A stretch of 64,000 bases of DNA from Eledone cirrhosa (Eukaryota), in the NCBI GenBank assembly GCA_964016885.1, contig OZ024744.1, positions 119,598,001 to 119,662,000 on the forward strand, given 5' to 3'. The position numbers and the translations under genes are program-made. The notes under the pieces were generated by a model that saw nothing but the letters and a program-made list of their open reading frames with translations, did not search any database and was not told the origin of the DNA. Each line of letters starts with the position of its first letter. Position 1 is the stretch's first letter. Below, piece by piece: positions 730-59,620 of this stretch.

Positions 730-1352
730 GGTAAGTATGTATGCATGTATACGTACATACATATATGTATACAGACGTACAGTAGTATGTATATATATAC
801 ATACATGCACACATATATACGTGCACGTATCGGTTTACCGAACATTTATTATAATGCTCGGTTTGTTCGTTTGTAAACAAACAAACAGCCTGAATTACGC
901 CGTACAGTGTTTAGGCAACCACGTCACCTTTTTGTTCAACACTGACACAGGAACGATGTACTAGTTTCAAGCTTATTAGCTATCGTCAGCATCGTATACC
1001 TTCCTGCCAGATGGTTGAACATCTGAAAGTATATACTTTCCTTATGCATATTAACGGCTGAACAGCCTAATTTGCATATCGATTGAGATCAGTCGGCTGG
1101 GCGCACCGAAAACGATAAATGGAATAGAATGAAACGAAATTTCATTTCTCACTCTTAGTACGGCACTTACTTAAATGTAAGTATGTATGTATGTATACGT
1201 ACATACATATATGTATAGAGACGTACAGAAGTATGTATATATATACATACATGCAAATTAGGCTGCTCAGCCGTTAATATGCATAAGGAAAGTATATACT
1301 TTCAGACGTTCAACCATCTGGCAGGAAGGTATACGATGCTGACGATAGCTAA
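730..1352. mobile_element. HHR tandem repeat (retrozyme-like family A): ~1.2 units on - strand plus inverted segment 1251-1352
   Basis: Homologous to 4462-5540 and 31780-32130; 1251-1352 is the reverse complement of ~977-1077. Confidence 0.8.
953..995 (-). ncRNA. Minimal type-I hammerhead ribozyme (family A)
   Basis: - strand: acgatg CTGACGA t agct-aata-agct t GAAA ctag TA catcgt; 6-bp stem I, palindromic loop III. Confidence 0.85.
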
Positions 1353-1820
1353 CTTTGGACATCCTGCAGGACTAAAAACAAAACCTGTCAAAGGACAAAG
1401 GAGCTCTTAAGAGTCAATAGCCATCCAAAATCAAGGCAGAATTCTAGTAGGCGGAAAACTCTGATATAACACCTGCAACCCTGATGGTATCCAATGATGT
1501 TGACTTATTCTTCTTTTTGGTAAATATCATCTTGGTTAAGAGAGTGGAACTGGCTTTGTGCAGTGCCTTTGCTCACTATAAAAGCTTCACGGCACAGGCA
1601 TTGCTTTATATCTGGAGATCTCTCTGCACTTGTCCTCACATGGTACCATGGGCCCAGCACTATATGTCAGTAATTGTCACAAGTGTAGTGTTTGTACCAG
1701 AGTTTTCAAGTCGCTGACTGACTGGACTAAAAAGTCACACTCGTTCAGCGCATCGGTAGGGGTTCTCCTACATGGATATAAAGTAGTGGCCATACTCGAA
1801 CACGAGTTTGCAGCCACCAT
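1353..1820 (+). mobile_element. Non-autonomous RTE-derived element (RTE 5'UTR-like body plus RTE 3' tail)
   Basis: 1440-1570 resembles the reverse complement of 17590-17720 (5' region of the RTE); ends tggccatactcgaacacgag-gcagccacc like the RTE tail. Confidence 0.55.
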
Positions 1821-1884
1821 ATATGTATATATATATATATGTATATATATATATGTATATGTATATATGTATATATATACATAT

Positions 1885-2157
1885 GTATCCAGGGATAACT
1901 TGAACCGTTAAGGTATATTATCAGTGGTTATGTCAAATTTTATAAAACACACTTTGTATTTTATCTGATGAAAGCGTACCAAAATGTTGGTACCCTTGAA
2001 ATATATATAATAGAATAAATATGGTTTTATAAATATAGTTTCCATTTATTTAATATCATTGAATATTATACTCCAGAAAACTGTTGAGTGCTCTGAATCA
2101 GTTATAAACATTTATATCTGTTGAAATACCAACAAATTGAATATCCCTTCTGCTTAT
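1885..2157 (+). mobile_element. Solo PLE pseudo-LTR with HHR at 1957-2017
   Basis: tattttat CTGATGA aagcgtaccaaaatgttggtaccctt GAAA tatata TA atagaata; near-identical inverted copy at 43347-43600; related to pLTRs at 38626 and 42624. Confidence 0.8.
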
Positions 2158-55663: not shown

Positions 55664-56009
55664 TCTACATATAATATAAAAGATTGGAACTTCCATCATC
55701 CTTTTGAGAAACGTGGGACAACCACGTCTATGCAATGATACACGTTTTACAGTCAGACAGAAGATGAACCATCTCCTAGAGGTCACTATTCTAGGTGGGA
55801 GCACCTAGAATTGTTCTTATACTATGCACAAACGGTACAACGAAGAATCTGGTATATCTGGAAGATTTTTTTACTGTTTTTTGTATCACACAGACACCAC
55901 GGACTCGCCTCATACTGTAACCAGAAAAACATCCAATACAGTCATTTTCTCTTTTACCTGTCTTCTCTTATCATCTGTTTACCCGGGCGAAGCTGGGTAC
56001 GTCAGCTAG
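55664..56009 (+). mobile_element. Non-autonomous Helitron (346 bp)
   Basis: A|TCTACATATAATATAAAAG ... hairpin accc-gggcgaagct-gggt, CTAG|T. Confidence 0.75.
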
Positions 56010-59000
56010 TAACGTTAATTTGAGGGAAATATATTCTAAGTATATATCTTAATAGTACGTGTATTTACGATTATTAGTTGTTTAAAATTTGTTTATAATA
56101 TAATATTTTTCTTCTGTTATAAGTAGATAAATAAATAAATACATAAATAAATACATAAATAAATAAATAAATAGATGGGTATATCATGTTATAGATAATT
56201 GATCTAATGAGTTATGAGGGATATTCGTTTTGTATTTAATGTAAATAAATATTAAGTTAAATTAAATTAACTGAGTTAATAAGAATATTTATATTTATAT
56301 GATTTAAAATGGGAAGATACGGAAAAAACTCCGGTTTAATTTATTTATTCGTTAGTGTGAGACTATTTAGTCAAAATAAGTATAGATGTTGAAAGATACA
56401 TTTAGCCAGAATCAGTTAGTGGTTATAAATCTATTGAAAAAATATAGAACAAATATTGATAAAGTATTGAAAAAATATTGAAAAAGTATTGAAAAAATAT
56501 TGAAAAATTAAAGAAAATTAAAAAAAATAATAATTTATAAGAGATAAGTAATTTTTAAAGAAATAAAAATTAAAGAAATAAAAATAAAGAAATAAAAATT
56601 ATTAAAATTAAAATAAAAATTAAAATTAAAATAAAAAAAAAAATAAATAAAAATAAATAAAAAAAAAAAAAATTAGAATTATATACGTATATATTTTATG
56701 AAACTTTAAGAAGTGGAATTACAGCAAATGTTATAGATATTATGATTTAGAGATATCAATATATTAAAACCAAGTGGATGAGATTGTTATGGAAATAAGT
56801 AGAAATATTATAAGTATAATTATAAGTTATATATAGTTCTGAATGTTGAATTCTGGCGATGTCTACAAGAATTAAATAAATTCGTTCTTAGATTAATAGA
56901 GTTTTTACATTTAAGTATGTAAAAAAATTTCCTCAATACACAATTTGCAGAATCTAGATAAAGCTGTATTTCAGTACGCGGGTGCTTTTGAAACTGTTTC
57001 CCAAGCTAATGAATAGTCCATATTCTTGCATTTTAAGCCCCATATTAGGTTTGAAAGAGAAGTTGAAGATTTTTTATCAAATCTTCGGAAAGAGCAATTG
57101 TGGTTATTCCAGCGACTTTTAAATTCTGTAGAAGTTGCACCGACATAGTTCAATATATTATCACTGGTTTTAACTGTACATTTATAGACCATGTTTATAT
57201 CTAAACACTTATTTTGTAAAGGACAGTTTGATTTAATTCTACAGTTACATTTTGCGGAGTTGTTGTTCGGAACGGTACTATTATGTTGGATATTGCTAGA
57301 GATATTACTGCTATTTTGGTTATTTTGGTTAGGGTTTAAATTTCTATTATTAATTCTATTTATATTTTGTGCTATGTTCATAGTAGTAGAATAGGATAGT
57401 TTTATAGTATTCTGTTAAAGATTGAGTGGTATCTGTGGGCTTTAGAAAAACATTTATCTAGTGCTTTAAAGAATAGCTTTGCTAAAGGTGTGTTTACGCT
57501 TAATGAGAATGGGGGTGACTACCAAATAATATTTCTAGTTCTAGTTCTTCTGTTAGTTTTAGAGTTTAAGTTAAATTTTTTATTATTATTACAATTAATA
57601 GTAGGGTTATTTGCCTTATTACTGTTGTCGATGTATTTAATCTTATTTATATAGCCTGCTCTATTTAAAGCTTCATTATAATATTCTGCCTTATCGTCAA
57701 AAATGTTTTTATTAGCGGAGATGCGTGAAATCTATTGTTGGACAGAATTGACAATAGTGTTCTTGATAGATCTAGGATGATTAGAGTTAAAACTTACATA
57801 GTTTAGATTCTCATTAATTTTATGGAATGGATAGTGTTAAGGTGTTAAGGTTTAATGTTACGTCTAAAAAGTTAACAATTTTATAGTTATTCTCTATTCC
57901 TAACTTAAGGTTGTAGCTATTGAAGAATTGTATTATGGATTTTCTTTTCCCATTAATTTCCCAATTACAATGATTTTTAATTAAAAGCAGCATATCATCA
58001 CGATATAAACCACCGGTCATCTCTGGCATTTTTCTATGCAGTGTATTATTAATAAATAAGCCCACATGATCCGTTATTTGCGCCGAGTCAGATGATCCCA
58101 TGGTGATATCAAAATTTTTTTTTCTATCGGCTTTTTTCCAGAGATGATTGTTGAATTCAATTAAAGTTTTCCGTGCAGTTAAAATGATATGCATTTCTTC
58201 GCTAGATAAATATGTATGTATAGATGCATAGACAAGAGCTTTATTAAGTAAATCTAAGAAAGAATTTATTAATCTAAGAACGGATTTATTTAATTCTTGT
58301 AGACATCGCCAGAATTCAACATTCAGAACTATATATAACTTATAATTATACTTATAATATTTCTACTTATTTCCATAACAATCTCATCCACTTGGTTTTA
58401 ATATATTGATATCTCTAAATCATAATATCTATAACATTTGCTGTAATTCTACTTCTTAAAGTTTCATAAAATATATACGTATATAATTCTAATTTTTTTA
58501 AATTTTAATTTTAATTTTAATTTTAATTTTAATTTTAATTTTAATTTTAATTTTAATTTTAATTTTAATTTTAATCATTTTTATTTCTTTATTTTTATTT
58601 CTTTAATTTTTATTTCTTTAAAAATTACTTATCTCTTATAAATTATTATTTTTTTTTATTTTTTTAATTTTTCAATATTTTTTCAATACTTTTTCAATAT
58701 TTTTTCAATACTTTATCAATATTTTTTCAATATTTTTCAATAGATTTATAACCACTAACTGAGTCTGGCTAAATGTATCTTTCAACATCTATACTTATTT
58801 TGACTAAATAGTCTCACACTAACGAATAAATAAATTAAACCGGAGTTTTTTCCGTATCTTCCCATTTTAAATCATATAAATATAAATATTCTTATTAACT
58901 CAGTTAATTTAATTTAACTTAATATTTATTTACATTAAATACATAACGAATATCCCTCATAACTCATTAGATCAATTATCTATAACATGATATACCCATC

Positions 59001-59620
59001 TATTTATATATTTATTTATTTATGTATTTATTTATTTATCTACTTATAACAGAAGAAAAATATTATATTATAAACACATTTTAAACAACTAATAATCGTA
59101 AATACACGTACTATTAAGATATATACTTAGAATATATTTCCCTCAAATTAACGTTATATGAGTTTTTATTCATCTCTTGTTTCTTTCTTCTCTCTCTCTC
59201 TCGCACTATTTTATCCTTCTCCTCTTCTCCCTCTCTCTCTCTCTCTCTCTCTCTCTCTCTCGCTCTCTCTCTCTCTCTCTCTCTCTCTCTCTCTCTCTCT
59301 CTCTCTCTCTCTCTCCATAGTCGTTTAAATAAACGGTTGTTTTTCAATTATTTACATATTCATTTGCCCATTCACACATAAGTTTGAAAAATCCCTAATA
59401 TATTTCCACTATCCTGTATGCATAAGGTAGGATTTTCATGGGTATGTCTCTATTTATAAAACAAACTTTGTATTTTATCTGATGAAAGCGTACCAATGTG
59501 TCATTTATTTAATATCATTGAATATTTACTTCAGTAACTTGTTGAGTGCTCTAAATCAGTTATAAACATTTATATTTGTTGGACTTCTCAAAGGCTTATA
59601 TATCTTTTACAAATATACCC
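56010..59620 (-). mobile_element. Naiad-type PLE (ORF remnant ~56830-58255, -) with ~890-bp inverted duplication of its 3' region (58265-59155), continuing on + to a deleted pLTR/HHR at ~59470
   Basis: MGSSDSAQITDHVG, GGLYRDD, CNC..YVGATS; 56010-56900 is the reverse complement of 58265-59155. Confidence 0.88.

Follow-up and report, generated by a model that had tools for sequence, protein, structure and literature searches.

In the genome of Eledone cirrhosa, Penelope-like elements (PLEs), their pseudo-long terminal repeats (pLTRs) and two hammerhead retrozymes were, at most of the loci sampled, inserted as pairs of inverted arms with unequal outer ends, one arm including the 3' tail of the element (long end, L) and the other stopping upstream of that tail (short end, S). 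We analysed a window of 64,000 nucleotides (assembly GCA_964016885.1, contig OZ024744.1:119598001-119662000), rich in (TA)n, RTE long interspersed elements (LINEs) and PLEs, and sampled further loci from the same 3.0-Gb assembly; the terms L and S and the family labels B, C, C', D, E, F, G, H, I, RZ469 and RZ441 were coined in this analysis. All 8 intact cases in the window paired a tailed arm with a partner stopping upstream, and across the assembly this L+S pairing was found in 108 of the 110 two-armed inserts with both ends mappable, S lying 56-79 nt upstream of L. The two-armed inserts are probably single insertions, with one RNA being reverse transcribed from primers on both nicked strands of the target.

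The samples comprised the best-scoring 37-40 candidates of each search, which biased them towards young, long inserts; for RZ441, family E and family C', DNA was taken for the 30 best matches of ~40 scored loci. Duplicated loci were tallied once, and the loci L086, L287 and L288, found by pattern, stood outside the tally. The 35 distinct RZ469 loci (of 37) included 25 L+S pairs, no homotypic pair, 3 inserts with an odd end, 1 joined to another family and 6 single arms. For RZ441 (30 loci, 28 distinct) the numbers were 12 L+S, 1 L+L, 5 odd, 3 complex and 7 single (L+S 12/13), and for family E, whose pLTR (5807) belongs to a PLE with an open reading frame (ORF) resembling that of family B, 23 L+S, 1 S+S, 1 odd and 2 single among 27 distinct loci (23/24). 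Neptune-type family C' gave 14 L+S, 1 odd, 1 end not reached, 11 single and 1 unresolved (28 distinct; 14/14), and Hydra-type family B gave 34 L+S, 3 odd, 11 direct and 1 unresolved (49 distinct; 34/34), 27 of its 34 L+S loci having been selected by their L end. When the four samples chosen regardless of end type were considered, 74 of 76 inserts were L+S (p about 4e-20 against independent choice). Outside the 110 stood 13 head-to-head loci with one non-standard end, 1 cross-family locus (L041), 1 with an end beyond the retrieved DNA (L256), 3 complex, 2 unresolved and 37 single-armed. The pairing was thus common to Hydra-type and Neptune-type PLEs and to both hammerhead retrozymes. Tail length was ~140 nt in family D, compared with the 56-79 nt of the five sampled families. 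Some two-armed inserts were very large: L256, a PLE palindrome whose arms both begin close to the 5' end of the ORF, and the RZ469 arrays L287 and L288, with arms of >3 and >5 kb.

The preliminary description of the window had reported 14 inversion junctions with truncated 5' ends fused, and all 14 were recovered when arms were located by self-BLAST after simple-repeat masking and then checked in sequence. Polarity was taken from hammerhead cores (by scan, or by eye for RZ441, G, F, H, B2 and C) or from ORFs, which pointed away from the junction in all 14 cases; the polarity call was weaker for family G (2526-2551), in which no more than the GAAA half of the core was present. The further claim that both outer ends are 3'-side sequence applied to 8 of the 14 (2538, 5251, 5807, 13303, 26984, 30698, 45430 and 46800), which had fixed 3' ends on both sides. 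In the remaining 6, one arm was cut or ended early: inside a hammerhead (1352 and 38264), beside an RTE piece (20833), in the 3' untranslated region (UTR; ~25780), in (CA)n (53865) or at a Helitron-like end (56010). Junction 24057 was no inverted repeat; it joined two different PLE families head to head with a 2-nt overlap. The segments 2526-2551 and 45414-45446 were fillers copied from other sequences, and a further junction of the same kind, at 61399, had been overlooked. The description of head-to-head architecture as the rule was too strong, since it was the commonest form, at 125 of 167 distinct loci in five families, and the window itself held non-inverted copies (the near-complete direct element at 38619-42836, a clear counter-example, and 1893-2154, 26147-26470, 31780-32129 and 43349-43597). 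The genome-wide sample of the five families supported both two-ended integration, as had been proposed, and the proposed sharing of the signature by retrozymes. Tail-to-tail junctions, which would speak against the idea if they were equally common, were fused turns only as second turns in two multi-inversion loci (L037 and L077); the other tail-to-tail neighbours were separate insertions within one TA tract. An apparent tail-to-tail exception at 8186-8723 was instead a fixed palindromic element of ~540 bp resembling a miniature inverted-repeat transposable element (MITE).

That element served as a control for the suspicion that the inversions reflect fold-back errors in assembly or rearrangement of TA-rich DNA after insertion. 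Its inner junction was identical in 39 of 40 loci, unlike the variable junctions of the PLEs and retrozymes, and the window copies of RTE LINEs and short interspersed elements (SINEs) had no inverted partner by masked self-BLAST. Repeats of this kind are hard to assemble, four locus pairs were duplicated (L024/L025, L043/L044, L115/L116 and L211/L212), and no read across a window junction was obtained. Against this stand the mismatches between arms, the fillers, the target duplications and the ends, which are fixed and unequal; moreover, contigs of another public run held other joins within the 5807 palindrome, which were read as further family-E head-to-head junctions. An origin by artefact or later rearrangement is very improbable. 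For RZ469, the sequencing-run data listed no strand-change joints, and one unit-length contig of 499 nt (run X3), from a library of unspecified kind, was not used as evidence.

Evidence that both arms arose in one event came from the flanks and from the variants of the arms. A target duplication of 11-14 bp surrounded both arms where the flank was not pure TA (L022, L028, L070, L096 and L099); it was shorter, with a mismatch, in L111, and was also present around the single-armed L039. In 29 family-B pairs, the arms of one locus differed at 0.0089/bp, compared with 0.0196 between loci, shared non-majority bases at 0.0079/bp, compared with 0.0006/bp between loci (13-fold), and held 45 variants in common that were private to their locus. 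Minor alleles at subfamily sites were shared within a locus in 12 of 15 cases (permutation mean 2.4). Both arms of the window RZ469 insert carried two variants in all six units, each of which was found elsewhere but, by exact searches, never together in the assembly; other sequencing runs had the common base at both positions. Variants common to both arms were also seen in the RZ469 loci L036, L040, L043, L046 and, in part, L033. Such sharing bears on one option in the preliminary description, namely that two separate ribonucleoproteins carrying different RNA molecules each prime one of the target ends. This would account for the cross-family joins at 24057 and L041 and for the discordant arms of L064 and L079; however, it predicts neither the shared minor alleles nor the private haplotype of the window RZ469 arms, and it offers no reason for the mutual exclusion of L and S or for L arms halting at S. 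We consider it a quite unlikely origin for the inserts as a whole, although a few per cent of them may have arisen in this way.

The published explanation for inverted PLE copies is self-priming on an antisense template, as proposed in PMC3846280, with the tail arising from endonuclease-mediated resolution, as proposed in PMC8557442: a finished strand doubles back as the template for the second, and trimming by the endonuclease at one end produces the tail asymmetry. Fold-back would explain arms with common variants and perfect palindromes, and in L026 the S arm matched the junction-side unit instead of the terminal one. The geometry of many inserts was different. A fold-back copy must sit within the strand that was copied, so an S arm longer than the tailed L arm speaks against simple fold-back; S arms extended further 5' than L arms by 149-996 nt in L052, L062, L084 and L075 and by 0.5-3 kb in L255, L259, L265 and L270, and in at least 8 PLE loci with a longer S arm the tail was present on the L arm alone. 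Arm starts were often kilobases apart (L049, L054, L067, L078 and L259), and several L arms consisted of tail sequence only, with no overlap to the S arm (L130, L143, L145, L195, L208, L282 and window 45444-45571). Among RZ469 pairs, 4 of 25 were not nested, when 5.1 would be expected for independent arms and 0 for fold-back, and the loops that fold-back would need were evenly spread (Kolmogorov-Smirnov (KS) p 0.63). The L arm of L033 had a variant missing from the unit that fold-back would copy, and the tail ends correspond to reverse transcription start sites in vitro (PMC11167929). Trimming that follows fold-back, including fold-back on antisense RNA, could mimic some of the non-nested pairs, and self-priming is weakened rather than removed: it fits a minority of inserts and is an unlikely explanation of the two-armed class.

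The arm starts and junctions were consistent with two complementary DNAs (cDNAs) meeting on one RNA. Short L arms look as if a hybrid already primed from S on that RNA had halted their synthesis, 10 of 16 starting <=20 nt from S (post hoc, p about 0.002). The 26 resolved RZ469 junctions comprised 7 with 3-8 nt of microhomology, 4 with 1-2 nt, 4 blunt and 11 with fillers of 1-39 nt; microhomology of >=3 nt occurred in 7 of the 15 filler-free junctions, compared with 6% by chance, and some loci had repeated copies of nearby sequence at the join. This pattern resembles polymerase-theta end joining or template jumps of the reverse transcriptase. In family B, 33 of 67 arm starts fell at 3720-3750, where a hairpin may mark the 5' end of the RNA. 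RZ469 arm starts were uniform around the unit (KS p 0.63), as would be expected if the template were circular or were a concatemer whose hammerheads stay uncut. The hammerhead cut was rejected as a preferred arm start, with 1 of 56 RZ469 starts within 198-208 and 0 of 67 family-B starts near 3862. A weak negative correlation of arm lengths (rho -0.40) was taken as a selection effect. The longest arm, of 14.7 units, was in L033 (C1:14044305-14051427), where variants recurred at two-unit spacing, suggesting a dimeric template or a later duplication.

The enzymology of twin priming is drawn from in vitro work on an anole PLE, in which both target strands were cut and extended and two internal start sites bounded the tail (PMC11167929). 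By analogy, the GIY-YIG endonuclease would nick both strands of a TA-rich target ~12 bp apart; of the two 3'-OH ends, one would start cDNA synthesis at S and its partner at L, these being the internal sites on either side of the tail, and a putative protein dimer may pair the two starts. The L-primed cDNA would then stall near S or displace the S-primed cDNA, the cDNA 3' ends would be joined through microhomology or filler synthesis, and the gaps would be filled. Single-armed inserts could arise if one end were left unextended. Retrozyme RNAs, as circles or concatemers, may offer an equivalent pair of sites and would likely be copied in trans by a PLE enzyme. A broader form of this model, which we put forward tentatively and at slightly less than an even chance, is that PLE integration is obligately asymmetric twin priming: one complex would cut both target strands about one helical turn apart and start two reverse transcriptases at fixed sites on one RNA, the tail being the spacing of the start sites; circular retrozyme RNAs would be rolled by both enzymes into two concatemers joined head to head, and ribozyme-free tandem repeats would behave likewise. 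A homodimer prediction for residues 1-480 of the family-B ORF in L083, made with no alignment, scored 0.00 and was not used as evidence, and no solved relative was found by sequence.

Several observations weigh against twin priming on one RNA. The in vitro start site was the same for top and bottom strands (PMC11167929), so the exclusion between L and S is not predicted by that work. Two inserts were homotypic (L107, L+L; L207, S+S), and 13 head-to-head loci had one end of a non-standard kind. The L026 arm fits fold-back, as do the perfect or near-perfect palindromes (5807, 38206, L017, L020, L081 and L082, and RZ469 loops <=40 nt in 5 of 25 pairs), although near-perfect palindromes are expected under twin priming as well. 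Shared variants could also be produced by gene conversion between arms or by a source array absent from the assembly. The arms of L064 and L079 were discordant at subfamily sites, and the two cross-family joins, 24057 and L041, require two RNAs or a nested insertion. Variants were confined to neighbouring units in L014, L018, L024 and L033, which indicated that templates were not always one-unit circles. Finally, no PLE with a retrozyme-like tail was found, and no partner PLE for RZ469 or RZ441.

The elements carried the features of endonuclease-containing (EN+) PLEs. A reverse transcriptase with a C-terminal GIY-YIG domain was identified by Pfam (RVT_1 and GIY-YIG) at 62269-63795, within a further PLE ORF (61984-63798) whose 5' end lies in (TA)n and which reaches the window edge; a weak RVT_1 match was found at 23244-24056. 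Families B and D had no Pfam match at 0.01 and were assigned by motifs seen in their ORFs, and the closest named relatives of the main window PLE protein were from Argonauta hians. Truncation at the 5' end, an adjacent inverted copy, a tail at one end and target duplication were all found in the sampled PLEs. Type I hammerhead cores with stems I and II were predicted in the pLTRs of families B, C', E and I, and no core was found in family D. The Hydra clade is described in PMC8557442 by an RWK-type motif, DKT, a CxCX5C linker, no CCHH, C-terminal CxxC and CxH, and (TA)n targets; family B had RWR, DKT, CNCRDRSKC, TCDLC and CCRH in the 737-aa ORF of L083. That ORF (L083 3628-5841) is a natural uninterrupted Hydra-type ORF in which the second half of the GIY-YIG motif is 2 residues shorter than in the window copy. 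The Neptune clade is marked by a CX2-5CxxC linker ahead of a GIY-YIG domain that has internal cysteines, and families C and C' gave a mixed picture: L256 has CIDKKCITC and two internal cysteines, whereas the window copy (22949-23452) reads CTNRKCIIS. The Hydra and Neptune names used here are motif-based and provisional.

RZ469 is a tandem non-coding unit with a stable predicted fold (z -9.3) and six type I hammerhead cores in the window, the Rfam HH9 match (31.8 bits) lying below the gathering score of 52; the RZ441 core was recognised by eye and is altered in some window copies. Both were inserted in TA targets with target duplication, and both have head-to-head arms that end at fixed L and S sites; their tails are related, with a hairpin before L. 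It is likely, from this insertion signature, that PLE enzymes mobilise both. No PLE ORF was contiguous with a retrozyme unit in 68 stretches, and the candidacy of RZ441 as the pLTR of the PLE at 32130-32960 was rejected when 39 of 40 matches, all the others, stopped at the join. The motif ACTC...GAGT lies just after S in several Hydra-type pLTR families (42755-42790, 10125-10160, 2065-2095, 5975-6015 and 26885-26915) and is a candidate RNA recognition hairpin; it was absent from the retrozyme tails, and a search for a fold common to all tails was negative. A third tandem family, with a 542-bp unit (60977-61527; L228-L238), was also two-armed in (TA)n, with three recurrent TA-rich ends and, where clear, arms that differed in end type. 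The unit had no CTGANGA core and no tRNA by ARAGORN, and it is likely a ribozyme-free PLE passenger. The octamer ATGCAAAT occurs in RZ469, RZ441 and the 542-bp unit (30770-30777, 1250-1257 and the 61365 region); it may mark a promoter of the small nuclear RNA type, as has been suggested for newt satellite 2, although a literature check did not confirm that link.

The features of the window are collected in the table. Upstream of the direct element, three progressively repeated 5' pLTR fragments with (TA)n between them (38267-38640) look as though target repeat and template had slipped against each other several times at the 5' join. Motifs at 55975-56010 and 28715-28748 resemble Helitron termini, and one of them cuts the left arm of the 58259 element. 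Rfam microRNA matches were dismissed as TA-repeat or palindrome noise.

Table. Positions, junctions and arm ends of PLEs, pLTRs and tandem families in the window.
Feature	Position	Junction	Arms and ends	Remarks
RZ441 two-armed insert	725..1352	1250-1254 (5-nt overlap)	right arm halts inside hammerhead	right arm beside another repeat
pLTR, family G	2392..2605	26-nt filler 2526-2551	long end left, short end right	filler matches RTE-associated repeat
RZ441 insert, 441-bp unit	4460..5537	5251	minus arm short end, plus arm long end	
pLTR of Hydra-type family E	5635..6060	5807, perfect palindrome	short end left, long end right	
Hydra-type PLE and inverted pLTR arm	10079..13516	13303	long end 10079; short end of pLTR arm 13516	ORF 11848-13302, minus
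PLE, minus	18732..20833		105-nt inverted internal ORF arm 20729-20833	inverted arm cut by RTE piece
Cross-family head-to-head join	22195..25780	24057	Neptune-type PLE (minus, long end 22195); Hydra-type PLE (plus)	Hydra-type partner without pLTR end
Single non-inverted pLTR, Neptune-type family C'	26147..26470		minus; long end	
pLTR, family F	26847..27046	26984	long end left, short end right	
RZ469 insert, 469-bp unit	28875..31595	30698	3.9 units minus (long end 28875); 1.9 units plus (short end 31595)	in (TA)n; type I hammerheads minus 29180-29204, 29649-29673, 30118-30142, 30587-30611; plus 30869-30893, 31338-31362
Single RZ441 arm	31780..32129		minus; long end	fused to older PLE 3' UTR; join unique to locus
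pLTR palindrome, family H	38028..38264	38206 (centre)	right arm ends in hammerhead	left arm adjoins tRNA-SINE
Direct pLTR-ORF-pLTR Hydra-type PLE, family B	38619..42836		plus; long end; no inverted arm	near-complete; ORF 38888-41107 with in-frame stop 39611-39613
Family D-like	43817..45571	33-nt ORF filler 45414-45446	1.6-kb minus arm, short end; plus arm tail only, long end	arms without overlap
Family D	46216..48502	~46800	long end left, short end right	
Family D	50010..53865	50815	long-ended minus arm; plus ORF arm	plus arm ends in (CA)n before pLTR
PLE, minus	56010..59581	~58259, 20-nt duplication	inverted 3' UTR arm	left arm cut at 56010
Third tandem family, 542-bp unit	60977..61527	61399		no hammerhead core; polarity assumed

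L1 twin priming likewise uses one RNA as the template for primers on both target strands and relies on microhomology to join the cDNA ends, but its second primer lands at variable internal sites and its arms do not overlap. In our inserts both sites were fixed, 56-79 nt apart, and arms mostly overlapped, only the tail-only L arms failing to do so; overlapping arms would need strand displacement. The insertions otherwise matched those of canonical EN+ PLEs as described in PMC3846280, PMC8557442 and PMC2377424, which have 5' truncation, an adjacent inverted copy with head-to-head the commonest arrangement, an optional tail at one end, a target duplication that encloses the whole unit and (TA)n targets. 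In that account the tail is optional and 30-40 nt and the inversion arises by self-priming, whereas here exactly one arm bore the tail in 108 of 110 inserts and many pairs cannot be simple fold-backs. Poseidon from Anolis (PMC11167929) was alike in cutting and extending both strands at AT-rich targets from two internal starts bounding the tail; it used uncleaved RNA and a dimer was predicted, but it belongs to another PLE clade, and the main text of that paper draws no link to inverted insertions.

Animal non-LTR retrozymes, as described in the parts of PMC7229834 and bioRxiv 10.64898/2026.07.22.740005 available to us, are likewise non-coding tandem units with a type I hammerhead per unit, and their dependence on PLEs was proposed there from co-occurrence and pLTR relatedness. 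Inverted two-armed inserts, L/S ends and target duplications are not described in those portions of the main texts, although the preprint supplements could show inverted copies. Descent of retrozymes from a PLE pLTR is put forward in bioRxiv 10.64898/2026.07.22.740005; RZ469 and RZ441 were not the pLTR of any PLE found here. The head-to-head PLE architecture and the self-priming model (PMC3846280 and PMC8557442) and the retrozyme-PLE proposal were thus already known; what is new is the L+S rule, together with the evidence for a single template and the insertion signature of the retrozymes, and these yield a testable mechanism. Our literature search found no paper stating twin priming or the L+S rule for PLEs, or inverted retrozyme inserts, and the passages of PMC12910113 gave nothing on the structure; older papers on Penelope structure may have raised the idea.

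PLEs are the closest relatives of the telomerase reverse transcriptase, and the origin of their inverted structures was named an open problem in PMC8557442. For animal retrozymes, the case for a particular mobilising agent still rests on co-occurrence. From the L+S rule follows a precise prediction that can be checked by counting and that connects the 2024 in vitro result (PMC11167929) with genomic scars; the rule also argues against the published self-priming for many insertions. It could also be leveraged as a sequence signature for PLE passengers that have no ORF or even no ribozyme.

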